A stretch of 63,521 nucleotides of DNA, counting the filler, from Hausera hauseri (Eukaryota), in assembly GCA_046269625.1 (NCBI GenBank). It is 11 parts of 11 records of this genome, joined end to end, with 100 filler letters (N's around TTAATTAATTAA, not from the genome) between each part and the next. Parts side by side here need not be neighbours in the genome. Positions count along the whole stretch, not along the records: positions 6,296 to 11,628 come from JBJURY010276951.1; 10 more parts are not named here. One strand, written 5' to 3'. The translations under genes and the position numbers were made by a program. Below are positions 3,680-58,926 of this stretch, in pieces. Below the pieces are notes generated by a model. The model was not told where the DNA came from. It was given only the letters and a program-made list of their open reading frames with translations, and did no database searches. Numbering within the stretch: the stretch's first letter is position 1; each line of letters begins with the position of its first letter.

Positions 3680-4996
3680 CAAATCCTAACAAATCGCAGT
3701 TGGACCACACTCCTTCCGTGCGTTCTGCTTGGCTGGAGAAACACACCATCAACTTCTACAGGCTGTTCACCTGCAGAAGCATTGTTTGGAACTTCTATTA
3801 GATCATTATTCGAACTAACTGAACTGAACAATACTCCTACAGACGAAACCATACAAGCGGCACAGAGACACTTTGTTGAGATCAGCAAAGACTCATTTTG
3901 CAGATTGTTACACGCAAACAAACCTTACATACCCAACGATTTATATACTGCAAAATTTGTATGGCTAAAGAATCAGACGCCGTGTGGCTTTCAACCTCAG
4001 TATGTCGGCCCTTGCAAAGTAATTCGCTTGCACTCCCACAACATCATCATTCTCAAAGACGACAAAGAAGTAACCGTTCGCATCAATAATGCTAAACCGG
4101 CCTTCTTCATTGACGACACGTCTCCCATCGAAACCACTTCTCCACCAACATCTTTACACGACGCACAGCAATCTAACAATCCACCTTCCATCTCTGCTCA
4201 ATTTCTTAATCCACTTTTGCCTACGTTTTCCCGTAAAACTTCCACATCAATTTTTTCTCACACTTCACCCTCTTTCTCCCCATCCGATTTTGCACCTTCA
4301 AGCATTCCACCACCTCCTTCATCTCCTCACAACAACCTACTTTCTCCCTTGATAACACTTCCTCCATCAAACACCATTTCGACTTCACCAATATATCCAT
4401 CTACACCTTTCATCATTCCACCCTTTTGCACACGACCCTTCAACTACTCGCCCTTGCCTCCTCCATTTTCTCGCTCTCCTTCGCTTTGTATCTCTTCGCC
4501 ATTTTCTCTTTCTCTCTCTCCTTCTACTTCCACACCCTCCTTATCGTCGGCGATTTCTTCCTCCCTTTCTCCTTACACATCAACTGTTACTCTTTTTATT
4601 TCCGCTTCACAACTTTCTCCTCTCTTTACCTCTTTCCCTATCCCTTTCCCGCTCTCTACTACAACTTCTGTTTCACTTTCCACTTCCACTCTCTCACATA
4701 ATTCAATCCCAACTTATACTCCAACTCCTCTCCGTTCCCCTTTATCCGCCACTACACCTTTAATCACTCCTCCGTCTTCAACAATCTCGCCTTCTCCTTC
4801 ACTTTCTCCTCTTTATTCTGACTCATCTTTGCACGACACAACATTAACAACAAAATCCGACAATTTTTCCCCCAACTTCAATCTCTGCAAACAAACACAG
4901 CATACAAATAAAACACGTAGAATCACATTCAGCAAGTATAGCAGGGAAACATCATTAAAAGGCACCCAACGTCTTGTCCACACTAAGACCGACTAA
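3680..4996 (+). pseudogene. Gypsy/Ty3 pol 3' fragment: integrase C-terminus (GPY/F region) plus long Ser/Pro/Thr-rich tail
   Basis: In frame upstream of ORF 3782: NRSWTTLLPCVLLGWRNTPSTSTGCSPAEALFG (end of integrase core), then FQPQYVGPCKV (GPY/F-like). 5'-truncated; ends QRLVHTKTD* like the pol copy at 20060-20089. Confidence 0.85.
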
Positions 4997-5090
4997 CATA
5001 GACACTTTTGCGTTTTGCGTTTTTCTTTTTTTTCCTTTCTCTTTCGTCTTTACCCTTTATAGTTTTCAATTTGCCACGGGGGAGGGGTGA

Positions 5091-5931
5091 TGTGGTGCCC
5101 ATAGCGGCCGGTGCCCTCTGGCCCATTTGGTTGGACACGGACGGGCGTCCGTTGCCGCCGCGTCAGGCCAATAGTTGGGCCCGATCTTCCGCCTCGAAAT
5201 TACCACGAGATAGCTGTGTTAGTTCTCACTCGTTCATTCAAAATTCATCTGCTCCTGTATTTTTGGACAGTAAAAAATCTTATTCAAAGTACAAAAGAGC
5301 TCAGTCGATAACAAAAAAGCCAGTATATTCCGTTAATACAATTATTGAAGAGACAAATGGAAACGCCTTGATATCTGCTTGATTACCTTTCGGTTCCTCT
5401 AATCTGTATGTAAACAAATGTCTACTGACGAAGGTTAACAACAAATGTTTCATTCTTCACAAGTTCCCAAAAATCTTTTCTCTGATCGAATCAAAGGCGA
5501 CACCGACTTCGACATAAACGTGTCGTACGACTAAGGCATGGAATCGCATCCGAACCACTTCATGGACCAAGGGAACATCTTTTTACTGAAAGAAACCAAA
5601 GCCACATAAAAAAATCATGACGAAACTCAGCTCATTGAAGGAATGTTCAATGATGAATTCCGATTTGGAAAATTTTACCATCTTACAGACAGTTTCCGAA
5701 GCATCATAGAAAAATCAGTTTTTTAGACACGCCTGCAAATCAAGTTTGATCGTCAGGCTCATCGTACTCATTTTGCCGGTAACGTTGTTTCAAGCTCAAT
5801 CCAGAAATCACTGTTGCAATTTATAGTTGTCTTGAGAACGTTTCGTAGATCAGATCATTGTCAATCAAAGACTACATATTCTAACATTCTGAAGATTCCC
5901 AGGTCAGCAAGCGTAATCAGAAACTTTTACA
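5091..5931 (+). repeat. 3' LTR of Gypsy element (TG...CA), preceded by polypurine tract
   Basis: PPT GGGGGAGGGG at 5078-5087, LTR start TGTGGTGCCC at 5091. The 3' end (CAGAAACTTTTACA, 5931) is inferred from similarity to the end of the LTR at 20161-20857. Its first ~60 bp recur at 29096. Confidence 0.7.
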
Positions 5932-6295: not shown

Positions 6296-6519
6296 AAAAG
6301 AGTTGCTGTATCTGGCCATCAAAACTAATCCAAACCGAGAAAATGAATTCAATAGGGCTACTAGCTCGGCAAGGGGGGCTGCCAGGAAACGACCTCGGGA
6401 AGTGAACTGGTCAAAGTTATTCGAGAAAAAAGAACATCAAAATAGATTCTTCTTAGGCAACAATAGGTTCGAAGATCTGCTATGAAACGTAAACGGAAAT
6501 CACAGAGGAAATGAGTCAA

Positions 6520-8338
6520 ACTGGCTAATCAACTTTTTGACCGCGATGATGCTAATCAGGAAAAATGGGTGCAGTCATAGTATATGATTGTGACAAATTT
6601 AGACTTGGCAAAAAATATTCATTAATGGACTTAGAAATGTGCGAATACACGAGACCTAACAAATTAGAAACAAAAGAGAAAAGTTACGTACTATATCAAC
6701 AACGCAAACTAGTTACATTTCATGGGGTAGAATGTATGTTGCGACGATCTCGCAACATCTTCCATTGTGGACTGGTATATGGATACTAGTCAATAATCAA
6801 GCCAACGACCCCATCAATTCCGATGAATTTAGAACGTCAGCATTTAAGCAAGCTAGAGAGACAGGGAGAATAAAATGGGATGGCATGGAATTGGAAATGC
6901 AGCAAGGGAAAATAATCAGAGTGTATCAAGTGGCAGCAGAAAGATTAGACATGCACACCGGGCATTGTCATGGCGCAGAATACGATATCGGAAAAGGATT
7001 AGAGTCGAACATCGTAGTAGTAGACTTTTATGAAACCGAAATGCGCATACAGAAGATGATATTCCATAGAGTTACTAAACTACACAGACAACCATAAGTG
7101 CCACATTCAGGATGGCACATGCCCAATCCGAGGTTCCGTAGTAATTTGGGAACCTGCGACTAAGGCCGATTGCAACTTTAGAATTAAGGAGCTTAAATTT
7201 AATGAGACGACGGGGAAACGGTACATAAGTAGCACAGAATCTAACTCTAAAACACGAGAAGATGTAGCTGAACAGTCCACACCTACGATACTGATCTCTA
7301 ATACCCACGGACTAAAGTTTGTGAAGAAAGATGTACTCACAAGTTGTGACGTTATAATGTACGCCACCAACTATGAAGCATTTCTCGTAGCTGAGACGGA
7401 AATAAACGCCAGAACGTTCAAGCTCGAAACTCAGGACATCCGGATTGAATATTACCTGAAAAACAGACAACTATTTCTACTATAAGGGACAAGCAGGAAT
7501 AGCCGAGCTATACCACAAAATGATAACAAACGACTGCAAGATGGATTTGGAAATAATGAAAACTAAGCTGGCCCTAATATATGCCAATCCCGAGTTAGCA
7601 TCACCAATAATTGGATTGAAGGAAGGTGTTTTTGGACGATTAACCGGAGAGGTCTTACTTACATGTCAGAAGAAAGACGTACCTATTAATGTGGAGAAGT
7701 GTATACAAGAGCTTCCCGTGATATACCAGGACGTACCGAGATTAGTAACGCCGATTACCAGAGTATTGTTGGCAAATTCTACCCAACCAACAATCTTGAG
7801 AGATTGCAAGACCAGCCTGGGCGAACCGATGTTTAGACGTAGCGAAACTGACTGGGTAAGTTTGCCAAACGGTGGTATAATCGCGCCACCTACCAAATTG
7901 ACAGGGACAAACTTAATAAAAGGAATAACCGATGATAAATTTCAAGATACGGCCGCGAAGGGTATTTACCGACCAAAAGAAGTAGAGGCGTTCAGTCAAT
8001 ATCTCGCCTTCCCTTGTCAACGTACGCACGAACTAAATCGAGCAATGCATACAATATTAGAGGATTCGCGCTACTAAGCGAAATGGGAGTCATTACTCGG
8101 TGTTGGCTATTATAAAAAAGTAACTACGGAAATATTATATAAAATCTGAGGAAGATTCCTGATATTCGGACAAGCCGCGTCAAAATTTCTAGCAATATAC
8201 TTCTTAATTCAACTGGTAAAAGCTATAGTTCAAGCAATCATAAATGGATGCGAGATATTCACCTTGACCGAATTCTCGTGCAAAATTTTGACGTCTATTA
8301 TCACGCGTTTCGGCAAATTCTTAAAAACTTACAAATAA
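6520..8338 (+). pseudogene. env: Envelope glycoprotein, chuvirus-G / class III (herpes gB-like) fusion protein type; frameshifted
   Basis: Internal signal-like WLINFLTAMMLIRKMGA followed by VIVYDC...KYSLMDLEMC...LYQQ...EC..RRSRNIFHCG; then KCHIQDGTC...VIWEP...DC, SCDVIMYATN, GVFGRLTGEVLLTC...C.QELPV...VTPITRVL; C-terminal hydrophobic FLIFGQAASKFLAIYFLIQLVKAIVQAIING. Cys spacing matches chuvirus-type glycoproteins found in retroelements. Confidence 0.8.
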
Positions 8339-8559
8339 AGTAGACGGAAAACTGAAGTAGAACGGCACGTAGGCTATCAAAATCGAAATCGTAAAAGAAC
8401 GTACCTATTCAAGCGAAATTTTATAAATACTAAGATACAAAGAAATAACTCAAACGATGACGAGCCTAAGGGAGGAGACTATATACCTAAGTCGAAGGGA
8501 CAGAAATTATTCTATTGTGAAGTTACCATTACCAATACTGCCGCTGACGGCACCGGTAT

Positions 8560-11500
8560 ATGAGGATTGTGAAAAGCAACCTGAGTTCGTACCAGACAGA
8601 AATTTATCGGAAGCCGTTCAGTCTAGAGGATCCTTACGAAGGAACGAAGCACTATGGAGTGTTGCGTAAGGTAGGAAAACCGTCTATCCCACGTCGTCGC
8701 TCAGCGGTCGACGAACACAGTATAATCTATTCACCTAGAGTACTTAGACCAAACGAAACGCAGTCAATATTTGCCAGAAGCCGTGCGGCACGCAATCTTC
8801 GAAGCCAAGATGATCAGCCTCCAGTTAGAAACCAAGGAATAGAAAACACGAATGGTGCGAATAATGAATTGTACCCAATGGAAGAACTGAGACAGTTAAT
8901 CGACCAGCCCGTTGGAACTATGGAGGTTACCATTAACGGTTACAAAGTGTCCGCGATCCGACACCCTCGGGTAGCACCAAATTATTACGGCACGATAATC
9001 GAAGGAAGGCCATTTCCAAAAATTCAATTGGAAGACTGGGAAGTATATGCGCTAATGGACACAGGATTTGAAATATCACTAATAAAATATGATTCAATAC
9101 CACAAATCCTACGAAAACAATTGTATCCGCCTCCCACAACGGATCCAGGAAGAGTCGGAACCTTCGGACAATCATCGAAAAGTAAATTCCGTTGGAAACC
9201 GGAAATTCATATAATGGGACAATCTTTCCATCATGAATTCTCAGTAGTGGAGCAATTAACGGATGATGTAGTATTAGGATGTGACTTGTTGAGACAACTA
9301 CCCAATATAGCAATCGATATCAATGCAGGCAAGTTAATAGAACTTGGCCCAATAAAAAAGGTTTAAACCACCAAAGATAAAAAGTTCGAAAAAGTGTGGA
9401 TTCCAGTAGATGAAAACATACCACCCAGAACTGAAGTACTCATATATGCCCAAATACGTCAAGATGACGACCAGCCAGTATATTTCTAACCAAAGGAATC
9501 TCTTAATCCAAACGTTGTACTCAGCAATGTTTTGACAAGAGTATCAACAGGCCGCATACCAATCAGAGTGGCAAATAATGCGCCCACTTCAACCAAACTG
9601 TAAGCCAATACCACTTTGGGACACGTATAGAGTATCATCAATTACTATAGAAGAGAAACCGCATAAGGGTGCCGAATTTCCGCCCCACGTCGAGACTAAA
9701 TTTTCACCGGAATCATATTTTCGATTCTACGAATTACTTTGTCGCTATAACTCGATTATCGCGAAAGATGAAGAGGATATTGGCCAAGCCAGAACTTTAA
9801 GACTCACGATTCCACTTAAGAAGCCTGGTTCCAACGACGAAATAGATTTGGAAGATCAAAAGATGCCCAAATGGTACCCTCCACCACACTCGTTAAGGAC
9901 AAAAATAACTAAGGAAATTGAACGAATGTTAAAGGCCGACATAATAAAACCAAGCTATAGATCTTGGTATTCGCCTATACCTATGGTTAAAAAAGGTACC
10001 GATAAGCACCGATTTTGTATCGACTACCGAGCGTTAAACACACTTATGATGAAAGACTTCTTCCCATTACCATCGGTAAAGGAAGCTTTGGATAGACTTT
10101 AGGGAGCTAAATAGTTCACCACGCTCGATTTGCAATCCGGATATTGGCAGGTAGAGATAGACGAGGAAGATCGTTATAAAACGGCATTTAAGACTCATGA
10201 CGGTATATACGAATTTAATGTTATGCCATTTGGGATAACTACTGAACCGGCCATTTTTTCTCGCATGATGAACAAGATGCTAATGAGACTGGAACACGCA
10301 TTCGCCTACTTGGATGACGTTATGATTGCGTCGAAAACGGAAGAGGATCATTTGAAGGACATTGAGGGTACACTGATGAGATTGGAGCAGGCTGGATTGA
10401 AACTAAATCCCAAGAAGTGCAAATGGGCTCAGAATACTGTGTCGTACCTTGGACATATAGTTGGAGAAGGAGGGTCGAAATCGGATAAATCATTATTAAG
10501 TAAGATATAGGACTGCATGGAACCTCAGAATCAAAAGGAATTAAGGCACTGGTTAGGGTTATGCGGGTATTATGCTACCTATGTACCAGACAATGCGAAG
10601 ATAAACGCACCCTTGTATCGTTTATTGAAGAAGGGGATCAAATGGAAATGGACCGATGTCAAACAAAAGGCTTTTAATGAAATGAAGAAAATTCTAACTA
10701 GTGAACCTGTATTAAGATATCCTGACTTCAACCTACCGTTCATAATTAAAACAGACGCCAGTAAGGAATACATCATATATGAATTAGCTCAGAAACGAGA
10801 GGACGAGTCGCTAGAATACCCGATCGCATATGGAGGGCGTTTTCTAAAGAAAGCTGAGAAAAATTATTCTGTAACGGAGTTGGAAACGTTAGTGGTGAAG
10901 GAAGCCCTGCGACGTTTTAACGTGTACGCCTATGGACAGAGAATCGTAATCGTTACTGACCACAAAGCAGTCACGACCTTAAAGGGTAGAGCAAATAATC
11001 TAACCTGTAGACTTAACAAATGGATGGAGAAGATCTCACGTTATAATATTTAATTCTAATACAAGCCCGGAAATAAACATGTTGATGCCGATGCATTATC
11101 GATACTTAAAACTAAAACAAGCGCAGTTACGGTCATAAAGAAAGCCCACCTCGAAGACTCAGTAGAAAGACAACGGACCCTTACACTGGATAAGGCATTG
11201 AAGATTGCTGTAGAGCAAAGACAAGGTTATGCAACAAATTATCGAGTTCGTTGATACCAACAAAACACCAAAAGGTCATCAGTTACGAAAACACCTACGA
11301 CGACATGGTCACAAATAATACGTCACAGGAGATTCAAACCACGAAAATGTGTTGAATTACGAACGAAAAAGACGAAAATTAGTCGTCATACCAAAAGGAT
11401 TACGTGCAGAAGTGCTAATAGCTGAACACGACTCATACTTAGCCGGACATATGTCGCGAAAAAAGACATTGGAAAGGATATTAAATAAATACTATTGGCC

Positions 11501-11628
11501 AAGCATTTACATCGACGTAAAGAATTGGGTAGGTGCTTGCGAAGTTTTCGCGACAAGGCAAAGGAAAACGAAAGGTTACTTAGCAGAATTGAAGCCCATA
11601 AACGTACCAAATAGGCCCATGGAAGCTA
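8560..11628 (+). pseudogene. pol: Gypsy pol (aspartic protease, RT, RNase H, integrase N-terminus) with stops and frameshifts
   Basis: ALMDTG (~9049-9066), RFCIDYRALN, LDLQSGYWQV, YLDD (10307-10318), IKTDAS, YSVTELE, VTDHK, HDSYLAGH...C zinc finger; PR-RT-RH-INT order. Confidence 0.95.
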
Positions 11629-11728: not shown

Positions 11729-11947
11729 TAATACTCTGACGATGGTCTGATCTACATACACAGTAATCCCATGTTCGCCCGGTAATTACGACATTTATGT
11801 ATTGGCAATAAAACCACCACCACCAGTTTGCCGTAAGTCACGCGGCACACAGTCCAATGGAAACATACCACGACATTTTGCACCCATGAGCAGTTTTTTG
11901 CAGTGATTAAGCTCAGTGGAGCTAAACGTAAACCGTGATTTATGCAT
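11729..11947 (-). pseudogene. Adenain-like (adenovirus-type) cysteine protease, N-terminal part, truncated by contig end
   Basis: Not in the ORF track. Minus frame reads MHKSRFTFSSTEL...CRGMFPLDCVP...FIANT*MS*LPGEHGITVYVD, matching the Polinton protease pattern G.FP.D.LP...IANT...PGEHW (catalytic His). Confidence 0.8.
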
Positions 11948-11965
11948 AACAACAATAATAATAAA

Positions 11966-13234
11966 TTACTTCATGGTACTAAGAGAAAGAGAGATATCGG
12001 ATGTTATATATATAATGACGGTTTCATTTTTCGTTATTTCCACCTCGGCATCAAACACGCCGTAAATGTACATCACAGTAGACTCTTCCAGTGCTTTGAA
12101 AAAGTGAACTTCTAGTCTTAGGTTTCCCTGCTGAAGTAGTTGTGACTGCGCAACATCATAATCATGAGCCAGAGCAAATGTAAAGAACGGATAGGTGCAC
12201 TGGAACAAATCCATCGATATGCCATTGTTAATGTTTTTGTTTAGCAAATCCATGTTGCGTACGATAGATTGCATATATGTGTATACATAATCACCAGTCT
12301 CAAAATATTGCTTATACATCTCAAGGAAATCTACATTATTGCCCAAACTGATGTAATTCACATTGCTATGGTTAAACGTTTCTGACTCAGTGGTATAACT
12401 GCCGGTTTGTTGAGTAGTTGTTTGAAATGCAACAAGCACAAATTTTAGCAGTCGCATATCGCGAAATAGCGCGTCCTTATAAAACGATGTCGAACTTTTG
12501 GGTATGATGTAAAACACGAGTTCGGTGCGTTGAAATTGATAACAGGCATTCTGTGTTTCCAAACCCATCGATGGCCTATGAGCACACATGGTTCTACATT
12601 TACACTACGAAAGTATAATTGTGCCTCGGTAATTTTCAGTATGGGTTTAATATTTGCAACGGTGGTTTTCAAACAAAAGACATTGTTGCTGCGTTTGTGC
12701 CGAATCATGGCTTTAACACCGGGCGGTAGGTATTTTGGCTGATCAAAAAAGTCAAAGTACAGCGGCCGACACATTGTAAGCGTTTTTGATTCTGCTACCC
12801 ATGCCTGACGGTTTGCTGCTGTGGCATCGTATCCGATGGTTTTCGTCAAATGAGTCGTTTTCGTGTCTGTGCTGTAATTCAGAGCCGTTTCAGTCAGTGT
12901 TTTGATACTGTATAGACTGGTGTTGCCTTAGATTTTGACGCTGTTCAGAGTCAGTGAAGCCCCCTGGAACAGTGTGAAGAAAAAGTAATTGGCCGGTGTG
13001 ACTGTCTGTTGCAGCGAGATCCGTTGACGAATCCTTTTTAACAATGACTTTTACATAGAGTAGAGTATCGTTCAAATCCAAGTATTCATTGTCCCATGCC
13101 ATGAATTTAATGCCAATGTTATCGTCCGTTGAAACCGAATCAACGGGGTAGATTTCTTCAAATGCCGCATTGTCAATAACAACATGTGGCGTCACTTTGT
13201 CAAATATACACAATTTAGATTTTGCAGATGCCAT
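11966..13234 (-). pseudogene. Maverick/Polinton major capsid protein (double jelly-roll, hexon-like), frameshifted
   Basis: AKSKLCIFD...EEIYP...EYLDLNDTLLYVK; PLYFDFFDQPKYLPPGV; LKITEAQLYFRSV; YPFFTFAL...GNLRLEVHF..AL...MYIYGVFDAEVEI; spread over ORFs 12890-13234, 12445-12849 and 11966-12589. Confidence 0.9.
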
Positions 13235-13237
13235 GAG

Positions 13238-13609
13238 TCAATCGAAAATCGTACGACGACGACGACGACGTTTGTTTATAGCTGATGAACTCGATGATGC
13301 TCTACGGCGTTTTCTCTTCATTAAGTCACTGCCAGCGAATTGTTTTTTGACTAATTCAACGAATCCCGGTGCAGCGTTTTTTATTTCGGACAAGGCGTGT
13401 TCCTTCAGTGATAGTAAAATCGAATTATTTTCATATAGTACGTCCTGTGCTGTTTTTGCTGCCACGACACCGACACGCATCAACACCGAAAATGCTAAGC
13501 GTGCCAATGTATGCAACCATCCAGAGCCATACTGTTTAACAACGAAATACGGTAGTTCACCGCCCTGCTGGGGTTTACTGTAAATGGAAACGATTTCAGA
13601 ATCAATCAT
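13238..13609 (-). CDS. Maverick/adintovirus small virion core protein (pVI/pVII-like: amphipathic helix plus Arg-rich tail)
   Basis: Intact 123 aa. QQGG and QYGSG putative protease sites, amphipathic WLHTLARLAFSVLMRVG, C-terminal KRKRRR...KRRRRRRTIFD. Lies between minor and major capsid genes and overlaps the upstream stop. Confidence 0.8.
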   Translation of the reverse strand: MIDSEIVSIYSKPQQGGELPYFVVKQYGSGWLHTLARLAFSVLMRVGVVAAKTAQDVLYENNSILLSLKEHALSEIKNAAPGFVELVKKQFAGSDLMKRKRRRASSSSSAINKRRRRRRTIFD

Positions 13610-14686
13610 ATTGTTGGATTCGACGGAAATGAAGCGTTAGACTGGTTGTGGTACCGTACGGAAATTCAATAAGGTAGCCCGCGTCACATCGGATATTCAC
13701 TTCAACATTGTTTATAGATGTAGATGCCACAGGTAGGTACATTGGATTATCGAGCTTGACAGTGACATTGTCACCGGCAGTATACTTGCTACTTTCCGGA
13801 TAAATTGCACGGAGTAGCGGTACACGTACTCCACCGACCAAAATCGGTTCAGTGACATTCACGTAAATGTACATTTGATTTAGTCCCGTTTTCAGTTTTG
13901 GTTTGAGTGTTGCAAAATGTACCGCCGCCGTGTTTGTATTCGTCGATGCATTAAACCGCTGTTTTCAAAACCCAATACCACAGCCAAATATTTGTCCAAT
14001 AAAATGTCAACAATATCTTTAGCCAGTTCAAATTTAATGTACCAATTTGCATCTGACTTGAAAACTTTAAATATCGCCTTGTACTTTTGATTTGAAAAGT
14101 GTTGACAGAGCTGTGCTGCAGATTCACAATAGACGTTGTCGCCAATCGATACGTATGACGTTGACACCCTTTCTGTTAAATAGGTAAATTTCACCGTTGT
14201 CTGGTAATATACGGGACTTAATCTAGGAGCATCTATATTTTCACCTTTAATATTTGTACCTTTGTACTGCGTATTTGTGAATCCAAATTTCTGCGCCATC
14301 TCAGAGAACTCAAAAGTAACAGTAAATTCAAAATCTGCCATAAAATGTAAGTATTCTCCTAATATAAGAACACCGATCTAACCGATTATACCGTAATTTG
14401 GTTTGGTCGTGCAAACGCCCGATTTTCCAACTGTTATTTTATTGTTAGGAAGTGTCAGAGGACAAGAATGTATTTTGGTTTCAGTAACATTCTTGTTGTA
14501 CGTTATTTCCATACTACCTTTCAATATCACCGGTGTGTAGGGAAAGTTAAATTCCGTCAGTGCAACCGCCCATTTTCCAACAGATAAATCCAAAGGATTG
14601 TTCCAATCTACAACGTATTCACTGACTGAATTGTTCGGACGAGTCGTCAGACAACTGTTGCTCGGCAAAACCACGTAAATACTCAT
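13602..14686 (-). pseudogene. Maverick/Polinton minor capsid protein (penton) paralog 2, frameshifted
   Basis: N-term MSIYVVLPSNS...NN..SEYVV...PLDL..GKWAVALTEF; C-term MYIYVNVTEPILVG...PLLR...PMYLPV...INNVEVNIR...G..I.F..G.TSLTLHFRR. Confidence 0.9.
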
Positions 14687-14740
14687 GATGTAAATGATGA
14701 TAATAATGATGATGATGATAGTGATGACGCAGTTTGTTTA

Positions 14741-15796
14741 TTATCGATGACGACGACGACGAAAATGTAGCATCAAATGTGCCTTGGCTCCGAACAGAAA
14801 TTTCATGGGTTTCCACAAATTCGTCTACTATATGCACGGAAATACTCTGCACAACATTGTGAGACAACGATAAATACATGAACCGGATGATATTTACATG
14901 AGCAGTTTCACCCGGTGTTTTGTACCACTCCGAATCCAGTTCAATACAAGCCGATAGTTGTTTACGGTCTCCGCCGTTATATACGGGTTTAGGTAAAGCC
15001 GTTAAAATATTTATTCGATGAAATTCTTCCTAGAGACGTGGTTTGTGTTTATCAACAATGGGCCGTCCGCCACCGGTTTGACCAAATTCTCGTTTCTTAA
15101 AATGCAGATTTATCGCCAATAGTTCATCAAAGGCAAAATATGTAACATTAACGTGTAGTGTAAACGAAATACGATCATTAGAATTTAATTCAAATGTTTT
15201 GAGAGCCAATTTAGCTACTGCCTTGATGGTTGCAGACAATTCTGTTTCCGTTTCCGTAAGAAAACCAATTCTTTTTGTATGAGAGTAAAAGAATCATTCA
15301 GTCTTTTGCCAATGCACTGTAATATCGGTGGTTTTCGCAGTGGACAAGTTTAGATTTTCACTAATTATACTCTGTCCACCGAGCTGTAAACCTTTCGAGC
15401 GCATATTGGCAGATGATTGAAAATCCCATGCCTGAGCGTCGGTTAGTGATTTAAATTGCAATTCAATCGGATATTTGTGTTTTATCACTAATCGATTGTT
15501 TAAATGAAAAATAAACCGGAAAATATTTCCGCTTGTAATTGCAAACGTGAAATGTTTCATTAGAGTCTCGGACTAACTGTAAACGACTAGATGCAGGAGA
15601 TTGTCTTACTAGGGTATAGTATATTCCACTGTTCTCATGTATTGTTATTGGTGAAAATGTAAACGTGAATTCCGCCAAAGCCACTTCCCAGGCTCCCTGG
15701 AGTAAGTCGAGCGGCTGGTTCAACGCCATGGTAAACCGTTCAGCGGTATTGTTATTGTTGTCATGTTCTATCAAGTATCAAATAAATGCTAATCAC
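14741..15796 (-). pseudogene. Maverick/Polinton minor capsid protein (penton) paralog 1, frameshifted
   Basis: N-term ISIYLILD...NTAERFTMALNQPLDLLQGAWEVALAEFTF; C-term MYLSLSHNVVQSISVHIVDEF, then after a frameshift KPMKFLFGAKAHLMLHFRRRRHR* (stop at 14741). Confidence 0.85.
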
Positions 15797-16299
15797 TCAA
15801 TCTGCGATGCAAAAATCCAACTCGGTGTAATGTATCCGTACGACTTGAAAAGATATTGTTTATTTGAACCTTTGCCGCGTGAACGTAGAATTTCCTGCAT
15901 ACAACATACATCGGGTTTCTCGGGCAGTAACTGCAGTCCCTGTTCGTAGAATTTACCGCGTATTTCCTTTCCGTTTTCTTCTTCTAAAACGTATATGACA
16001 GGTGTTTGTTTTGTGTGGATTGCCGAAATGCGGAAAACCTCGTCGCTCCAGTTCTAATTGAAATTCTTAATGAATGGCGTCGTACTTATTTTTGAAATAC
16101 GTACGTAAGCACCGATTTTATATTTTGGGCGTTTAATTGCCTGTTGTTGTGTTCGGTTTTGATAAAGCCACATGTCCAAATCATCGGTAACTTCAACCCG
16201 GAGCATTCCGTTAATTCCACGGTGTGTCGAATGATTGTATGCATGAATAATATCCGGTAGTACATCTACCCAGCGTTTGTTGCCTTCTACTGCCTTCAA
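15793..16299 (-). pseudogene. Polinton retroviral-like integrase C-terminal half with chromodomain remnant
   Basis: RWVDVLPDIIHAYNHSTHRGI, KYKIGAYVRISK...F.K...*NWSDEVFRI...PVIYVL....GKEIRGKFYEQGLQ, EILRSRGKG..KQYL.K..GY...SWI. Confidence 0.9.
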
Positions 16300-17329
16300 T
16301 TAGATACTGATGGTAATGGTAAAGTCGTAACTAGCGGTTCTACTGAAGAATTCAGAACCATAGCTATGACTACAGATCCAATTGACGAAATCGAAGAAAC
16401 TGCTATGGATGAAAACAGTGGCAAAATAGCTGATGATGAAATTATTATAAGCGAAACTGTTGCGGATGAAATAGCCGATTGAAATGAAGAATTTGAAGAA
16501 TGCCATGATCGAACGCATCTGATAAGTGCGAAATTTTATTTTCAATATCCTCTCTTTAATTATTTTAAAAAGACTGTCACGGTGATGACGATGTTGATGA
16601 AAGTTATTATGAAAAACCATATTATGAATATGTGGATAAACTATCAATGTACTGTCAACAAATCCATGCTAGAAGTGACTTTTACAAAAAAGAGAAAAAT
16701 ATGATTAATCTTGTGGAACATTTATCTGATACAATTGGAAGAAATGTACTTTACAAAGCAAAAATTTTACCTGAAGCCAAATTACCAAGAACATATTTTC
16801 TTTTTTAAGTTCTTTAATTCAACGCGTTCTTTTCAACAGTACTAAAGTAATGTGTATGATATAATCGGTAAATATACATTTGATTTATCACATTAATTAC
16901 ACTTTCCATTAACGTGCATTCTGTTGTTGTTACCAGTGCTACTGTTNNNNNNNNNNNNNNNNNNNNNNNNNNNNNNNNNNNNNNNNNNNNTTAATTAATT
17001 AANNNNNNNNNNNNNNNNNNNNNNNNNNNNNNNNNNNNNNNNNNNNGTCGATTTTACGACAAGCGTTATGTAGTAGACAGCTCTATCTGCATTTATTACA
17101 CAAAATATCAATCTTGTGCTAGGTCGTGTGTGCTGAAATGCAAACATTATAAAAATACCTTAAGTTTTTCTTCATCATCTCCTTCTCCTCCTTATTATTT
17201 TCGTTCCTCTTCTTTTTCTCAACAATCCTCAAAAAATTAATAACGCCGCCAGATGCCACGGCACATTCTGGCATAGGCAATACTTCTCAACTTACTGGCC
17301 GTCTTAACACCGCTTCTGCTGTCTTTTTG

Positions 17330-20089
17330 TTGAAAGCTGCGATCTTCTTTAGCGCTTCTTCGCACATCGCCTTCATTATCGATTCAGGAGTTGCTTTTTT
17401 ACGTCTTCCATTGTCCTTCGCTTCTGCATCTACTAAAGTTTTCACGCATTCACTTTTCACTGCGAGTTGTCAACCCTTGCACATTGCAGGTACCACATAA
17501 TTGGTTTTTACATACTCCAATTTACCAGACCAGTTTGCCTAGAAATTCTATGTCGCTAGTATTAAGTCGCCCATTATTGGCTCAGATGTCGTAGACGCAC
17601 ACGATCTGATTGTTGACTGCGGGCACGGTTGTTTGCTGCGTCGAAACTCCGTTGTGGATGCTAATGAATATCTAACAGACAGCCAAATAGGCATGTCGTT
17701 GCCCTCATCTGCTAAAAACAACATATCTAATAAGTCATCTATTTTTTCTATTATACCTAACGGAACTAATTCCATTCTTAAAGTCGGATAAGCTGAATGT
17801 TGATAATGGCGATGTCACTCGTTTTTCGCCGATCACAACCACATACTTTTCCGATAGCATACCGCCACCATTCTCATCTTTGGATGCTACTCAAAAATCT
17901 TTGATCACTCAATCATGATTCAGCACCATAAAGAAATATTAATCCTTCAAAGCACCTTCGACAATCTTACACCACATTGCCACCGAGCACCAGCACCCAG
18001 TTAAGCAAAAAGTCTGTCCATTGTCTCCTCGACGACGAAAAGCCACAGAATCTGAATTTCAGGCCTGGGAACAAGCAGGCATCGTACGTCGCTCAAAATC
18101 GCTTTGGTTCTCACTTCTGCATATTGTTACCAAAAATGCAGGACAATAAGATCATGTGGCTATTACCGCCAATTAAATTCACTTATAATCATGGACGCAT
18201 ACCCTCTGCCGCTGACAAATGATATTCTTCATCGCCTTGCATAAAGCGTATCATCAAATACCTGTTAATCTAGATGGCGGCCAAAACTGCAGTCACCATT
18301 TCATTTGGATTATTTGAATACGTCTTTATGCCATTTGGCCTTCGCAATGCGTCCCAAACATTCCAACACCACACTGATTCTATTCTTGCTGGTTTGAATT
18401 TCGCCTTTCCGTATCTTGGTGACATCCTAACAGCCTCTTCTTCGCCGCAACAGCATACTGAATATTTACAAGTAGTTCTTCATCGTTTACATCAGCACAA
18501 CCTGCAAATAAACTATGAGAAGTGCTTTTTCTTCCAGAAACATATAAACCTCCTGAGCCATATAATCTCACCCAATGGATATTCACCACAGCCTGACAGA
18601 CTGGTTCATCTCAAAAATGTCCAGCTTCCACGCACTACCTCTGGTGAACTTGGTTTCCCCGACATGTTGCATTTTGTACACAAGTACGTATCCCACCGAT
18701 CCGCTTTAACTGCACCATTCACTTCACTACGTGTTGGGAAGAAGAAAATGCCTATCCACTGGACGGCAGACTTTATTAACAGTTCTGTCCATCTGAAAGA
18801 AAATCCGAAGGTCGTTGAAATATCCGCTCTTCCGTATCCTTATGCTAGATTAATACTTTCAATTTACGTCTCTATTACTGCAACAGGCGCGGTTCTTCAC
18901 CAAATGCACAACGGAATCCATACACCGCTTGAATTCTTCACGCACAAATTCACGGCACCAGAACAACGGTACTGCACCTTTGTCCGTGAATTACTGGTCA
19001 TAGATTTGGCTGTGAAACACTTCAAGCATTTACTTCTCTCTTGTCCTTTCGTCACCCAAACCGACCATAAGCCGCTCGTGCAAATCATGTCACTAAGGCA
19101 ACCATCACCGTGGCAAGAACGGCAGGTATCGTACCTGTCCATATTCAGCTTTGTTATTAAATATATTTCAGGTATTAACAATTTGGTCGCGGATTTTCTG
19201 TTGAGGTCGGTTAGCTCAATTACGGTTCAGCCAATATTTTCTTCTGAAATCCTAAAACTCAACCAACCATCTACTGATATCCTTAATTCCCTCAGATCCT
19301 TTCAGATCATTGATGTCATCGCATATAATACTTCAAACTCCGGCAACAAAAAAATTATTCTCGATACTTCATTGCAAATGCCACCTTTCCTTCACACACA
19401 TTCACTTCATAATCCAGGCTCAAAAGCAACCTTTCATTTGCTCTAACGTCAAGTTGTTTGGCCTACAATGCGTACAGATGTACATGACTGGGTTAAAGAA
19501 TGCGTATCTTGTCAGAAATACAAGGTCACCAAAGAGCTTAAACCGCCACTTTACCACTTTCCCTGTACATCTCGCTTCGACACCTTTTATCTATATCTTG
19601 TTTGTCCCTTGACTTCCGACAATGGATATCAACACATTTTAACAATGATGGATCGTGTTTCTTTTTGACCTGAAGCTGTTATGTATGTTCAACAAACACT
19701 GATTCAGTAGCTGATTCCTTCCTTAAAATCTGGATCAGTCGATTTGGTTCCCTACGGCATATCATAACTAACCAAGATCCGCAGTTTGAGTTGAAACTTT
19801 TCAAATCGCTTGTTAAACGCTTATGGATGTCCCATTTTCACGCAATACCATACCATCCCCAAGCAAATTGCCTCCTTGAAAGGTTCTAACGAACAATAAA
19901 GATTTCTTTAAAAATCCTGGCAGACAATCGCCATAACTGGACCTCTATTTTGCCGTTCATCCTACTTGGTTGGCACAACACCCTCTCCACCACCACGGGT
20001 TGTGTCCCAAGTCGGTAACACTTGGTACGTACAGCAGGGAAAAATCCACAGAAGGAATACAACGCCTTGTACACACCAAAACCCAATAG
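17330..20089 (+). pseudogene. pol: Gypsy/Ty3 pol (PR-RT-RH-INT), decayed, with internal deletion in the integrase C-terminus
   Basis: FIIDSG (protease, ~17372), KTAVTISFGLFEYVFMPFGLRNASQTFQ, YLGD (mutated YLDD), TDHKPL, HNPG...CVSCQ, YHPQANCLLE; ends QRLVHTKTQ* like 3680-4996. Confidence 0.92.
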
Positions 20090-20160
20090 GCACTTAACAT
20101 TTTTTCGTTTTGGCGTTTTTGTTTGCCTAATAGTTTATACTTTTCCACGGTGAGAGGAGG

Positions 20161-20857: not shown

Positions 20858-22043
20858 GTATCAATTATTTTCCTAAATTTCGAGAAGAATTACAACCGCG
20901 TTCCGAGTTTTAGTTCAGAGATTTATTTGTTAGTTCGCGTTTTTGCTGACGTATTGCAATTTTCAACTAACAATTAGAAATTGTTTCGACACACTAAGAA
21001 ATTTTGGTTGATTATTGCTTTGTGTATAATTGTCCGTTTCGACAGTTTTTTTGTTGGCGTCGTTAATTATGGTTTTCAGTCGTTTTTGTGTAACTGGAGA
21101 AATTCCGTTATCCATGTTGCTCTCGTCAAATTGAATCTGATATGCAGTCTAGTTGGATAATCAAATAGTTGACATAATTCCAATCTGCTCAGTTTAGTCA
21201 ACCTTCAGAATTGTAAACATCAGTTTTTAACTATATACTTCCAAATTAAGCAAAATGTCACATTGACACTAACTGGCTTGAATTTTTTACAATTACAATT
21301 TCGGATATTTTATTTATTTCTCGAATTTTGTGAATCGCCAGAATGATATTCTCAGTTTGATTTTCATTTTTGCTTACGAGAATTTATGTAAATGTGTTTG
21401 TAATTCACTTTTCGTTCTTCATTTTTGTTAGAGTTGAGATATTGGACGAAACGCGGAGTGTGTGAAACACCATTTATTTTAACGTCACGTTGTACATTAA
21501 AACGCAGTTCTCCTTCGTCGAGTTGGTGATTTGACCGCTTGATGATTTCTTCGTATTGCATTATTGTCAAAATTCTTAATAGAAAAATCTACCGCCTTTA
21601 TTAGATAAAAAGAAACAAATTTTTAATTTCTATAATTTTATTTTGATTTTTTTGTTGGCGTTCATTTAACTGAAACGCCCTTTTTATAAAATTCAAATTA
21701 TGTTAACAATTAATATACAATTCAAATTTCATCAATCGAGTTTTCCCTTCACACATTGAAAGCAAAGAAAATTCAAAAATTTTGAGCACGATAGATAAAT
21801 ATCGTGTTCTTCTATACCACAGAGATACAGAGGAAATGACTTCTGTTATGCCAAAGTTACTCCAAGCATTAGAACTGTCACCAATTTAGGCCCAGAAATT
21901 TTGAGTCCTTTTTGGCAAGTAAGTTGTTTGAATAGATTGAGGTGTGTGTTAACGAATTTAACAAGAGAAACATGTAGCAAAAATGAACTATTAAAAGAAG
22001 ACATGAAAAAATTGATTCCTTTTGCCACGAATATAAACGAATA

Positions 22044-22487
22044 ATGTCACTTGTTCCAACAGAATATGAAAAACTTATATTACCATTAACGACAAAGTTG
22101 TATAGAGAAATTGACATCGAAATGGATCACGATATAATGACTGCTGAGTACGCAAGTCAAACAATGACTAAATTTGACATCCCTTATCCAAAGTCAATGG
22201 GTGACTTAATTAAAGCCGTTAGATGCAATTATAACAGAATGAGGGATAACGAATTTAAAACAATGGATCACATTCTATCTATACAAGGATTGTTAAGTAA
22301 TACCACAACTCTTAAAAGTGATGTCGCAGAATTTATTGATGACTACCATGAGAGAGGACCAACGAAACCTGGTCTGCCGCCTGTTGAGATATTGGACAAA
22401 CAGATTCTTTTTAAAAATCGATATGACAATTTACTGAGAAAAATGGAGAAGCTGTCAAAGGAGATAAAAAATGAGAGAACGGAATGA
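22044..22487 (+). pseudogene. Intronless fragment of axonemal dynein heavy chain (DNAH5/8-like tail region)
   Basis: EFIDDYHERGPTKPGLPPVEILDKQILFKNRYDNLLRK matches the outer-arm dynein heavy chain segment F..DY...GP..PG.PP.EA.DR...F.NRFD.L.RK. Only ~150 aa present. Confidence 0.7.
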
Positions 22488-22876
22488 AGAGAAATAGATT
22501 TAAGAAAGAAAAGATTAGGTTTGAAGAACCCCAATTAAGACAGGTTATTGTAAAGATAAACCAAGATCCCTCACTTGTTATTGATGTTAACGGAGTAGAG
22601 ACCGTTACTATGTTGAAAAGAAAAATATCCGAAAAATGTCACATGAGAATAGGTAACGCTGTAATCATCTATAAGAACAAAAGGTGGAACAGTGACAAAA
22701 CAATACGGAGGATTCCACATGGGACAACTATAAACAACATTTGTGGATTAAAACGAGGAAGTGTTAATGAAAATGAAGATCTCGAGAGTCGATTATTGGC
22801 CAAAGATGGATTAAGATACGAGTTAATAGTACAGAGAAAATCGTTAATGAATGGTAGATTAATAGATGAATTTTAA
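22484..22876 (+). CDS. Ubiquitin-like domain at the N-terminus of a BEL/Pao gag (stop at 22874 probably a lesion)
   Basis: QVIVKIN..SLVIDVNGVETVTMLKRKISEK....NAVIIYKNKRWNSDKTI...PHGTTINNICGLKRG aligns by eye with the ubiquitin fold ending LRGG. The frame continues past the TAA into a coiled-coil stretch. Confidence 0.65.
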   Translation: MKRNRFKKEKIRFEEPQLRQVIVKINQDPSLVIDVNGVETVTMLKRKISEKCHMRIGNAVIIYKNKRWNSDKTIRRIPHGTTINNICGLKRGSVNENEDLESRLLAKDGLRYELIVQRKSLMNGRLIDEF

Positions 22877-23555
22877 TGCCAAAACAATAAGTACGATGAA
22901 ACCTTCAAAAAGTTATCTATGGAAATTAATGCATTGAAATTACTCACCAGGAAATTAAAGAAAAAAGAAGAATTAGCGGAATTGATCGACGAGTCAAAAA
23001 TATCGAAGTACAAAATGAGGAAATAATAAAGATGATCAAAATGAAAAGTCTTATGACATTAGAAGACAAATAAGATGTGAAAATTCGGAATGAATATCTA
23101 GCACCAAAGTTAAAACGTGCTGAGAACTTCCGAAATTCGGTGGGAATGTTGCAGAATTTGAGAAATGGCGACAAATATTCAAAACGTGTGTAGATAAAAC
23201 ATCGCTTTCTAGTATAGACAAGCAGATTCAATTAGAAAATTATTTGTATGGAGAAGCAAAACGTTTAGTTCAAAACTATGATTTCAGAAGATTCATACAA
23301 AGCAGCTGTCGAAAAATTGGAACGATATTATGGAGGAAATCAGAGGAACTACGCATTCCTTATGTCAGAAATTATGGAATTTCAGAAAATTAGCGTGCAT
23401 AATATTAAAGAACTGGATTCTTTTGCTGCGTTATTGGATTCGGTCATTATAAGGTTAAAACATTTAGACCGTAAAATAGAGTTTGAAAGCGATCTATTGT
23501 ATCAAAATTTAATCCAGAAGTTACCCGAAATTATGGTGTTAACATGGGAGCGATA
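22877..23555 (+). pseudogene. gag: BEL/Pao retrotransposon gag (DUF1759-type), truncated by contig end
   Basis: FKTCVD....DK.IQLENYLYGEAKRLV...SEDSYKAAVEKLERYYG...LIQKLP....WER is the typical Pao gag pattern. Confidence 0.85.
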
Positions 23556-24545: not shown

Positions 24546-25089
24546 ATGGGGAGTAACTCCCGTTATGTTGGGCGGTGGGTTGCTCCGCACATGGGCGGCA
24601 AAAAGAAGAGCAATGCACTCATATCAGACAATGAATCTAAAATAATTCCCGATTTTTGCTTTGTCAGTCCCAATACTCAATCATACAATTGCACTAAAAC
24701 CTGCTCGAATTAACAAAGCCGCGGAAACTGGTAAGATAAGAAAAGAAATAGAAATGCAAAATTTGAACACATCAGTTCAAAGCACAACATCACTCTTACC
24801 AAGGCAACCAAAACCAATAAACAATAAAAAGCTTATTACAGCCGGAACAGGAAGCGTGGAAAATGGAACAGGCATTGGAACAGGAATAGGCATGATTATA
24901 GAACGGCAAATGGAAAATAATATACCAGACTATATAACTAAGAAAAATTTTCCTAAGCAAAACAATACACCTACTCAAAATACAGATGACGAAAATACTA
25001 AGAAAAAAGTTTTAATACGAAAACGAGCAAAACCATCTGTATATAAACGACGCAGAATACGGAAGCGTCATATTTCCAACCATGACTGA
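24546..25089 (+). pseudogene. VP1-unique-like minor structural ORF (possible degenerate PLA2, Gly-rich stretch, basic NLS-like tail)
   Basis: MGSNSRYVGRW...DNESKIIPDF resembles an eroded YxGxG...D...HD motif. Continues via frameshift into GTGSVENGTGIGTGIG and RKRAKPSVYKRRRIRKR; overlaps the capsid ATG at 25082. Confidence 0.45.
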
Positions 25090-26209
25090 AAAAGATTCTA
25101 TTCCTCCCGACGTTGTAGAAGGTGGCGAATTACAAAATCCGACAAAATATCATATGAACTTAGCAGAAACAGAGATAATTACATTACCTTTAAATATTAC
25201 GTTCAGTATTACATTTCAAAATGATTTAACAAAATTGCATGAGCTGAAAACTGCTTATTTCCAACCGTACGTGTGGACAAGAGAATTCCTAGATTTAATG
25301 AATTACTATGAATACTGGAGACCGAAACATATGAAAGTAAAATTCATGAACGCACAACCGACGTATCAGACGAGAACAGTTGATTTCAAAGGTATTAATC
25401 CCGAGTGCTGATTACAATTCTTCATGGATTACAATAATATATTTTACAACTATGAATCAAGACCAAATACAGAAATTACTGGAAAAACTGAACTATTAGC
25501 TTTTTGGGATGAAGGATTATTGAAAAACGATGATTATCTACAAGGATGGACAACCAGTTTGACAAATATTACAACACCGGCAAAATGTGCAACAAAAACA
25601 TTAACAATATTAACAGATAACAGAGGCAATCCAGCGACATTACGTCATTATTATGAACACTTACCATTCCAAAGAAGTGTAACAGAAATAATAGCTAACG
25701 AACCAGAATTATTCACATATGAATACAAACTAACACATGATTATTGGAAACAAACACATTTGGGCACAGAATTATGGTATGCAATCAGATCAAAAAATGG
25801 AAAATTAGCCGATAATCAATTCGGAAGTATACGAGCACAAAAAAATCCATGGATTGCAGATAGATTCGATTATAGGTTAATAGTTAAACCAGATTGAAAT
25901 ATATTAGCAAATTGGTTCGATATAGAATCACAAGAAGCGATAATGAAACAATATTACGAAATGAGTTTAGACAAAAGTACATACAATACATGGAACGCAC
26001 ATTTCCACAAAGAACAAAGCATAGTTGGGCAAACTTTCGAATATTGGTGGAGAGATTGTGAATATGTATATGAAAGTAAACCAATGCCGGGTCTATACTT
26101 CAAAATAAGTCCATTAGCAGGCAGATAATAATTCATGTGCACAAACATGTCAAAAGAATGTATCAATAGAATACATTCGAATTCACACGTGACCAAGTAA
26201 AAGAAATGT
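25082..26209 (+). pseudogene. Parvovirus-like single jelly-roll major capsid protein (~375 aa)
   Basis: ORFs 25082, 25424 and 25943 share one frame, separated by single TGA codons. EFLDLMNYYEYWRPKHMKVKFMNAQP parallels parvoviral DWQ.L.N.Y..FRP....K.FN; PMPGLYFK...TCQ..VSIEY parallels PPPQI.IK...GQVSVEI. Confidence 0.7.
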
Positions 26210-26226
26210 GAAGATAAGCATTTATT

Positions 26227-27092
26227 ATGTCGGATCAAAATATAAAATTACTTCTTAAACGAAAATTTTATAAACGACTAGTGATTGTGTGCCAAACATT
26301 TACAAAATTAGCAAAATTCAATACAAATGGAACAGAAACAGATTTAAAAGATTGCTGGAATAACAAAATTTTCAACAACCAATTCAGTTATTACAATGTA
26401 TAAATAGGTATGTTTCATTATTTTATTTCATTTTTTAATGAATTACAAAAAGTTCGAGGTCGAAGCTATCAAAAATGTACATATCCTTATCTTCAATCTG
26501 TTTATTATATACCTGATGATTGGCCAGATGATATGTTACATAATCGCACCAGTCTTCCAAAACTTATCAATGCAATTATTAACGGCCACGGCAGTAAAGT
26601 TAATACAATCCAGCTACTTGGTCAGAGAAATTGCGGAAAATCGTTCCTCATCAATTTATTAACAGCCAATAAAAATATGCGAGCAGTACACGTCATGTTC
26701 AGCAGAAGTAATTTTTGGTGTCAAGATTTAATTGGTAAAGATATTTATGTGGGCGAAGAAATTGTTTTAGATCAATTCAATGCACAGTACTTCCTCATGT
26801 TAATGCAAGGCAGTCAATTAACACGTGCAGAAAATAAATTCCAACACAGTTCCAAATTACCGATGAAACCGATAATAATTGCGAGTAGAGTGTTCGTTCC
26901 GCCATGTTAGTTCGTTATACGATGCGTTCAACGTATGCCGATTATTTATTTACGTGCACACCAATAAAATTCAGCATACCAATTAACTATGACGATTTAG
27001 ACGTTGTGCGAATATTACAACATGTGATTAAATATTATTCAGGATGTAAATGTATGCAACGTCGGGGTTTTTTAAAATTTCAATCACCTTAA
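26227..27092 (+). pseudogene. NS1-type superfamily 3 helicase lacking an N-terminal HUH endonuclease
   Basis: ATG at 26227 is in frame with ORF 26410 (one TAA at 26401). Walker A GQRNCGKS, Walker B IYVGEE, B' LMQG...ENKF, motif C PIIIAS. Frameshift near 26905. Confidence 0.85.
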
Positions 27093-27228: not shown

Positions 27229-27410
27229 ACCACGCCACCCACGCATTTCACGCCTACGCCACCCACGCGTATCACATCCACGCACTTCACGCCTACACCA
27301 CTCACGCATTTCACACCCACGCATATCACAACCACGTATTTCACGCCTACGCCACCCACGCATTTCACGCCCACCCCATCTACGCATTTATCGCCCACGC
27401 CACCCACGCA
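27229..27410. repeat. Degenerate tandem array, 24-bp unit ACGCCACCCACGCATTTCACGCCT with interspersed shorter units
   Basis: About 7-8 imperfect CACGC-rich units directly downstream of the helicase gene. Confidence 0.85.
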
Positions 27411-27578
27411 AAAAACCTACCCTCTACATTTATGTCGGCTTGGGACGACCAAAAGCTGCATTATAGGCTTTTTCCCTAAGACAAGACAAATTTATTTAAC
27501 GACAACAATTACAAAATATAAGAAAAGAATCCTCGATTCTCGGAATCTGGCAAAGAATCCCGATATTCAAGAATTTGC

Positions 27579-48723: not shown

Positions 48724-49115
48724 TGTCTTTTGTTTGAAAACCACCGTGGCAAATCTCAAACCCATACTGAAAATTACCGAGGCACGATTATACGTACGTC
48801 ATGTAAAGGTAGAACCATCTGTGCTCATGGGACATCGATTGGGTTTGGAAATGCAAAATGCCTGTTATCCATTACAACGCACAGAACTCGTGTTTTACAC
48901 CATACACAAAGGTTCAACTACGTTTTATAAGGACGCGCTGTTTGGCGATATCCGATTGTCAAAATTTGTGCTTGTTACATTTCAAACAACTACTCAACAA
49001 ACCGGCAGTTATACCACCGATTCTGAAACGTTTACACACAGCAATATATAAATTATATTAGTTTGGGCAAGAATGCGGATTTCTTTGAAACGTATAAGCA
49101 AAATTTCAAGACCGA
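48724..49115 (+). pseudogene. Maverick major capsid protein fragment, copy 3
   Basis: KTTVANLKPILKITEARLYVRHVKVEP...QRTELVFYTI...QQTGSYTTDSETF, highly similar to copies 1 and 2; truncated after NFKT. Confidence 0.9.
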
Positions 49116-58843: not shown

Positions 58844-58891
<48 letters not shown>

Positions 58892-58920
58892 CCATCGTCA
58901 TCATCATCATCATCATCATC
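58844..58920. repeat. (TCA)n microsatellite in the Maverick mCP1-mCP2 spacer
   Basis: About 25 TCA units; a shorter related (ATG)n-rich tract sits at the same place in copy 1 (14685-14730). Confidence 0.9.
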
Positions 58921-58926
58921 GGAATC

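Follow-up and report, generated by a model that had tools for sequence, protein, structure and literature searches.

Does a fusion glycoprotein gene that lies directly upstream of a retroelement pol gene belong to that element, or do the two have separate origins? This question is raised by a contig of Hausera hauseri (record JBJURY010276951.1 of assembly GCA_046269625.1) at positions 6296-11628 of the window, the 63,521-nucleotide stretch of DNA that we analysed. The window is made of short contigs joined via N spacers, and all positions given here are window positions. Our answer is that the contig very probably represents the middle of a single decayed Ty3/gypsy long terminal repeat (LTR) retroelement of the Gag-Env-Pol (Burro-like) kind.

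Env and Pol in the contig

The stretch 6296-11628 (5333 nt) lies between N spacers and makes up a single complete contig. Both ends are assembly breaks and fall inside the coding region; the LTRs and the primer-binding site would lie beyond them. On the plus strand, which carries every feature described here, Pfam matches follow one another in the order PF24664 glycoprotein, protease (PR), reverse transcriptase (RT), RNase H (RH) and integrase (IN) zinc finger. Thus, as an earlier note on this DNA had claimed, env (6562-8335) precedes pol on the same strand. The continuous gag-env-pol open reading frame (ORF) that the note envisaged is absent from this copy, which has decayed: there are at least seven frame changes (near 6560, 6780, 7080, 7475, 8550, 9640 and 11250) and 14 in-frame stops within the coding pieces. 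The copy is dead, and the polyprotein can no longer be produced from 6296-11628. We found no second copy of the element, and neither gag nor another env piece turned up in other parts of the window, which is also devoid of Rfam families and tRNAs.

A hydrophilic leader (6296-6518), presumably the end of a Gag or cargo region, is followed by an internal signal-like segment at 6519-6560, the only hydrophobic 11-mer in 6296-6700, after which the frame changes. The position of this segment matches that of a hydrophobic segment in all 15 relatives shown. The Cys-rich glycoprotein (Env) then extends for about 590 codons, close to the 600 or so given earlier. It matches PF24664, the Monjiviricetes fusion glycoprotein, at profile positions 18-88 (E 2e-6) and 322-599 (E 1.6e-31), and along the 626 positions of a profile made from 15 relatives it aligns from 21 to 618, in order and in four reading-frame pieces, retaining 13 of the 14 invariant cysteines. 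The ectodomain (6562-8173) consists of these four pieces, with stops. It ends at a single transmembrane (stop-transfer) segment, 8174-8245, which holds the sole 19-residue windows with a hydropathy above 1.7 in the contig's three forward frames. The signal-like and C-terminal membrane segments reported in the note are therefore both present. The stretch from 8246 to 8919, in which the frame changes at least once and a stop occurs, is assigned to the Env cytoplasmic tail and Env-PR linker from its length in comparison with the relatives.

What kind of glycoprotein is this? We modelled the Env of an intact relative, P0009, from a 78-row alignment (pLDDT 80.8). All 40 PDB matches listed for the model were herpesvirus gB (best E 7e-14, TM about 0.3), and its best viral match was chuvirus glycoprotein G (E 1e-39). 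The window's own stop-free Env piece, of 205 aa, gave a model with a pLDDT of 80.0; gB filled all 15 of the best listed rows, yet at E 0.05 or worse, which speaks against reading the fold from this copy directly. A VIA-align comparison of the fragment matched the long helix alone (best Z 6.0) and was uninformative. Because the match of the fragment is not significant and that of P0009 is, the class III status of the window Env rests on homology. The homology to P0009 and the conserved cysteines support the prediction that it is of the class III gB/chuvirus-G type, in line with the earlier proposal. In the Atlas, neither the Env fragment nor the P0001 leader had a match that scored 0.9 or more. 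A word-indexed search for longer Env relatives passed none of 1633 candidates, while a full profile search did find such relatives.

Downstream of the Env tail lies the stub of a first protease copy (8920-8958), which scored 23 bits, the best of 2831 windows (next best 8.9), and breaks off before the catalytic motif. A full aspartyl protease follows (9004-9300; PF00077, E 2.2e-5), with its DTG motif at 9055-9066. The PR-RT linker (9346-9645) has no Pfam match in the window; it aligns to the same region of the relatives and is probably a dUTPase-like domain, a label taken from PMC6431247. Next come a Ty3/gypsy RT with stops (9989-10462; PF00078, E 5.8e-36; YLDD at 10307-10318), RNase H (10649-11044; PF17919, E 1e-28; PF17917, E 2e-25) and the integrase zinc finger (11388-11628; PF17921 at 11388-11561, E 5.8e-17), where the contig stops before the integrase core. 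Of the PR-RT-RH-INT series claimed earlier, the first three domains are thus present, and integrase is represented by its zinc finger only because the contig ends there. The domain order and the gypsy-type RT and Pfam set place this Pol in Ty3/gypsy (Metaviridae), as had been supposed.

Origin of Env and Pol

The joint between Env and PR is smooth. No stretch of 12 or more purines separates them, no repeat within the contig exceeds 26 nt, and the base composition is even across the joint (A 34-41% throughout the contig). Thus the contig gives no sign of an LTR, polypurine tract (PPT), repeat or compositional seam at this place, and the earlier note's observation to this effect holds. The transmembrane segment and PR are about 0.7 kb apart on the same strand, a gap shorter than the 2 kb within which Env lies upstream of Pol in GAG-ENV-POL errantiviruses. 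The membrane-proximal motif is separated from the first protease motif by 271 codons (131-391 in 15 relatives), and at least two protease motifs follow Env in 8 of the 15 relatives. By these sequence comparisons the spacer length, the tail motif (see below) and the protease stub appear to fit the relatives, which supports a common origin.

A profile search with Env against 1.84 billion representatives returned 127 matches, 21 of which were scanned with Pfam. Among the 12 best, two are short fragments that were outside the Pfam scan; in nine the ORF continues past Env into a protease, in three it extends as far as RT, and in four Env is preceded by Gag or by a CCHC zinc knuckle. Wherever Gag is recognisable among the relatives, it stands before Env. 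The window Env is 34-39% identical to its nearest relatives. A FastTree phylogeny of 100 Env rows places it in a clade of 10 rows (support 97), itself part of a clade of 19 (support 93); apart from the window, this larger clade has 18 rows, and 15 of them are Env-protease fusions. Other branches of the tree hold the free glycoproteins and the pol-then-env forms, and the window Env does not group with the free-standing viral G proteins, as a solo endogenous chuvirus G would. Moreover, three relatives encode Gag-Env-PR-RT-RH-IN in a single ORF: P0171 (2694 aa), P0173 (2871 aa) and P0049 (2146 aa). The earlier proposal that Env is embedded in the polyprotein between Gag and protease is thus carried by these intact relatives and is not seen in this copy.

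The affinities of Pol were compared next to those of Env. The best single-domain RT-RH matches among 126 proteins compared were P0171, P0174 and P0173 (390 bits), of which P0171 and P0173 are complete Gag-Env-Pol ORFs; the window RT-RH is 45% identical to P0171 over 453 aa. The best 43 of 2500 matches in the RT search score high via summed repeats, and none of them is in the top 60 per domain. When Pol was divided into pieces and each was ranked against 116 Pol proteins, the 12 members of the Env-Pol clade took 10 of the top 12 places for the integrase zinc finger (all of the 10 best), 9 for the RT core, 8 for the pre-RT piece, 6 for the linker and 5 for PR; some of the competitor proteins lack PR or IN pieces. 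In an RT FastTree of 117 rows, the grouping of the window with the Env-Pol clade has a support of 0.94.

Several results weigh against the assignment of Env and Pol to one Gag-Env-Pol element. The 120 RT-RH matches listed, out of 2500, covered protein lengths of 909-2893 aa only, so the search favours long polyproteins. For the connection/RNase H piece, the Env-Pol clade took only 2 of the top 12 places (p 0.23). In an IQ-TREE analysis of RT-RH from 47 of the 117 rows, the window joined the Env-Pol clade on a long branch with supports of 60/19, and it did so in 64% of bootstrap trees. An approximately unbiased (AU) test rejected neither a place in the Env-Pol clade (p 0.33) nor one among elements that lack env (p 0.38). 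The RT phylogeny, which the earlier note had suggested as a check, thus gives a position in the expected clade that the AU test does not settle, and taken alone it is the weak point of the one-element reading. Additionally, gag is not in the contig: nowhere in the window does the Gag profile that matches 55 compared proteins reach 2 bits, the six frames of the contig hold no CCHC knuckle, and only 88 codons precede the signal-like segment. Of the gag-env-pol order claimed earlier, the env-pol part stands and the gag part finds no support in this contig. Last, one unbroken ORF is not universal in the group, as three pairs of relatives (P0248/P0174, P0249/P0182 and P0008/P0227) appear to have Gag-Env-PR and Pol as separate ORFs on equal-sized contigs. 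The equal sizes suggest that the two ORFs of each pair are linked. In these pairs, a programmed switch among the tandem proteases could set the Gag:Pol ratio; alternatively, the splits could be mutations.

How else might the contig be explained? It may come from the same kind of element, with Env or Gag-Env-PR ending at a true stop and Pol expressed by frameshifting, readthrough or splicing, so that more structural protein than enzyme is made. There is a stop at 8336, right after the membrane region, with more frame changes before and after PR; the three pairs of relatives appear to be split in just this way, and P0009 and P0010 end shortly past the membrane segment. However, the family-typical tail motif lies 530 nt beyond the stop at 8336 and in the protease frame, which indicates that the Env tail ran up to PR. 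Env through RT is open in P0002, P0007, P0012, P0033, P0049, P0171 and P0173, and in a copy with 14 stops any single stop is likely to be decay. We regard this explanation as rather unlikely. An arrangement in the order Env-Gag-Pol, with a short Gag in the spacer at 8336-8919, is more improbable by far, and we give it very little weight. It has been reported for two oribatid mites (PMC13524379), and no gag is found upstream of Env within our contig. Yet the spacer has neither a Gag-profile match nor a CCHC motif, its length and the motif at its end are as expected of an Env tail, and the relatives with a recognisable Gag all place it before Env.

Alternatively, Env and Pol could be unrelated: the 3' env of a gag-pol-env element, or an endogenous chuvirus sequence, could have come to lie beside a gypsy pol through nested insertion or misassembly. 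The undecided placement in the RT tree would allow for this, pol-then-env forms do occur among the more distant matches (P0020, P0040 and P0057), and the window is made of short contigs. Against this stand the nesting of Env among Env-PR fusions rather than free G proteins, the five of six Pol pieces that rank the same Env-Pol clade first, and a joint with no trace of an LTR, PPT or repeat and no shift in base composition. We consider such a chance association quite improbable. Taking all of the evidence together, the derivation of Env and Pol from one element is much the likeliest reading.

A model for the polyprotein and the Env tail

We propose a model in which the working ancestor of this Gag-Env-Pol element expressed one long ORF as a polyprotein. 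Cytosolic Gag, often with cargo domains, would come first, as is shown in relatives; this part lies outside the contig. The internal signal segment, which is seen in the contig, would then send the ectodomain into the endoplasmic reticulum, presumably with translocation and cleavage by signal peptidase. Certain ectodomains of the gB type have a membrane segment on either side (PMC13524379), so the segment at 6519-6560 may instead be an uncleaved anchor. The ectodomain would fold as a class III fusogen; the fold is predicted for relative P0009, and fusion is a putative function. The single transmembrane segment would halt transfer and leave a tail of 200-300 residues, together with PR-RT-RH-IN, in the cytosol and tethered to the membrane, an arrangement that we infer from the presence of only one hydrophobic segment. 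By analogy with other retroelements, the protease, often in tandem copies, would free the enzymes at maturation. Last, the word resembling YPXnL in the tail most likely recruits ALIX and the endosomal sorting complex required for transport (ESCRT) for budding; this step is speculative, and we hold it to be somewhat doubtful.

The tail word takes the form LYPx3L at 8869-8889, in the protease frame. It marks the end of the Env tail just before the protease stub, and it is the sole such match in the contig's three forward frames. A related YP word lies 20-79 residues from the tail end in 12 of 15 fused relatives. The pattern hydrophobic-Y-P-x-hydrophobic occurs in 11 of 15 fused tails and in 23 of 57 free glycoprotein tails, compared with means of 0.3 and 0.6 in shuffled tails; none of 1000 shuffles reached the observed counts. 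This pattern was chosen after seeing the data, the shuffles ignore kinship, and the word of the window, the longer YPx3L form, falls outside the pattern counted. Eight free rows were dropped from the count: seven with tails of fewer than 25 residues, and P0123. P[TS]AP words occur in 12 of 57 free tails and in 2 of 15 fused tails, while PPxY words are not enriched in the tails (38 and 26 of 1000 shuffles were as high).

YPXnL and PT/SAP are the late domains that bind ALIX and TSG101, respectively (PMC8402826). Because the Env tail carries conserved words of this kind, it may be Env rather than Gag that recruits ESCRT for budding. Instead of a late domain, the word may be a tyrosine-based sorting signal or a protease site of the Tyr-Pro type; a protease site would not account for the YP word of the free glycoproteins. 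As free G proteins carry the motif too, we dropped the idea that it is a displaced Gag p6-like piece. In the literature searched by title and abstract, subscription papers being outside its range, we found no late-domain role described for the tails of chuvirus-type or Burro Envs. Late domains, ESCRT, budding, Bcl and Burro are all absent from the main text of PMC13524379.

We also observed that in P0002, P0007, P0033, P0171, P0173, P0174, P0176, P0180, P0182 and P0227 the polyprotein continues after the integrase into a second signal-like segment and ectodomain, a region that would lie beyond the end of our contig. Most of these ectodomains have a membrane segment and a tail, and PPxY words are seen by eye in the tails of P0171 and P0173.

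Known elements and the rest of the window

The env-before-pol layout is already published. It was described in 2019 in the planarian Burro/GYPSM1 elements, giant gypsy-like elements of dugesiid planarians, in which an Env resembling mononegavirus fusion glycoproteins lies in frame between Gag and PR, and a dUTPase-like stretch lies between PR and RT (Arkhipova and Yushenova 2019, PMC6431247). Burro elements are up to 30 kb long and carry Bcl-2-like, ubiquitin/SUMO-like, MATH, BIR and ankyrin cargo (PMC6431247). The nearest relatives of the window element carry cargo of the Burro type, namely Bcl-2-like segments, ubiquitin-like domains (by eye) and ankyrins. The contig studied here is a 5.3 kb fragment; its 88 leader codons hold no Bcl-2 remnant, and any further cargo would lie beyond its end. 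Burro was compared by its description only.

A Bcl-2-like segment stands directly before the Env signal in four relatives, P0001, P0009, P0029 and P0249. The support is a Pfam E of about 1e-3 in P0009 and P0249 (and E 6e-4 for P0009 against Bcl-xL); it is weaker in P0001 (E 0.18) and P0029 (by eye). Ankyrins occur in P0174 and P0249. The window leader scores just 0.7 bits as a Bcl-2-like segment; what had looked like a BH2 remnant of Bcl-2 was rejected, as 45 of 300 shuffles scored equally well. The leader has no match in Pfam or to the Gag profile, and it matches none of 22 relatives (best E 0.45). As side observations, ubiquitin-like domains are seen by eye between Gag and the Env signal in P0002, P0008, P0029, P0248 and P0249, as is a DEDDh-exonuclease-like stretch in P0033. 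This interval looks like a site of variable cargo, in which the Env signal occupies the place of a Bcl-2 tail anchor.

A second group for comparison, the GAG-ENV-POL errantiviruses with an HSV/gB-type Env, was reported from Nematoda, Bryozoa and Platyhelminthes by Chary and Hayashi (2026, PMC13524379), after earlier work by Sacco et al. (2022). By term counts, the elements in supplementary file 1 of PMC13524379 appear to number 9 from flatworms, 10 from bryozoans and 36 from nematodes. The window element resembles them in its Ty3/gypsy Pol, its gB-type Env and the position of Env less than 2 kb upstream of Pol; it differs in that they are intact and often multicopy, whereas it is a dead fragment. 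By eye and unaligned, the Schmidtea rows in supplementary file 2 of PMC13524379 are far more like the window's relatives than the bryozoan rows are. A third comparison, made in the earlier note, is with Anakin, a mosquito BEL/Pao element with a chuvirus G (Dezordi et al. 2020, PMC7642597). The glycoprotein family, PF24664, is indeed shared. The likeness does not extend to Pol, which in the window is of the Ty3/gypsy type, with gypsy RT neighbours and no BEL/Pao domain match in the contig. In a BEL/Pao-type match, P0057, Env comes after the integrase-end domain and falls in a separate part of the Env tree. Nematode NERVs, reportedly, also have a flipped env/pol order, in a metavirus with a glycoprotein of the RNA-virus type.

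Other contigs of the window contain further remnants. One of them, at 3680-5100, has a long ORF that weakly resembles an integrase end (E 0.26) and whose tail is rich in Ser, Pro and Thr and strongly C-skewed. It is followed near 5079-5090 by a purine tract, rich in G, that resembles a PPT in front of an LTR. Two more gypsy-type pol remnants, distant from the element studied, lie at 17850-20090 and 56950-57260, and at 21987-23555 a BEL/Pao Gag domain (DUF1759, E 0.0014) is immediately preceded by a weak ubiquitin-like ORF (E 0.01). Three related copies of a decayed multi-gene unit, 84-89% identical, are found at 11729-16946, 48724-49045 and 58844-61409; the unit has no Pfam or PDB match, and by eye we take it to resemble Polinton/adintovirus capsid and core genes. 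An SF3 helicase/NS1-like ORF at 26404-26910 (E 2e-4 to 1e-3) belongs to a parvovirus-like remnant (24646-26910) with possible capsid-like ORFs upstream, and a tandem repeat lies at 27236-27424. The regions 33342-37172 and 51054-51461 hold long ORFs (690, 134 and 334 aa) of no clear family that look transposase-like by eye, along with a piece of a piggyBac-type transposase (E 5e-8). Finally, an uninterrupted 455-aa TRAF-like ORF with RING and MATH (E 3e-35) lies at 45508-46875. It is either a host TRAF or MATH/TRAF cargo of the Burro type; no other Burro pieces were found on its contig. TRAF and piggyBac-type transposase families are expanded in Schmidtea (PMC6109357). The by-eye resemblance of the relatives to the Schmidtea rows and, more weakly, these two genes make a flatworm host somewhat more likely than not.

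In sum, the contig is a divergent, decayed example of a known design. The sequence itself adds one dead, divergent copy to a group already described, which matters little, while env before pol is confirmed from raw sequence as a stable design in gypsy elements. The tail words match viral late domains far beyond chance and offer an inexpensive way to test how such enveloped elements and chuvirus-type viruses exit the cell. Our broader hypothesis is more tentative than the budding step by itself, and we think it on the whole unlikely: in Gag-Env-Pol elements and chuvirus-type glycoproteins, the budding signal, a YPXnL-like word often accompanied by PT/SAP, would sit on the Env tail and not on Gag and act via ALIX/TSG101, and the tail would also tether protease and Pol to the membrane where budding occurs. 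With its long branch, this copy may moreover represent the Burro-like clade in a host group from which it is so far unrecorded. If this is true, such elements would have an assembly route unlike that of retroviruses.

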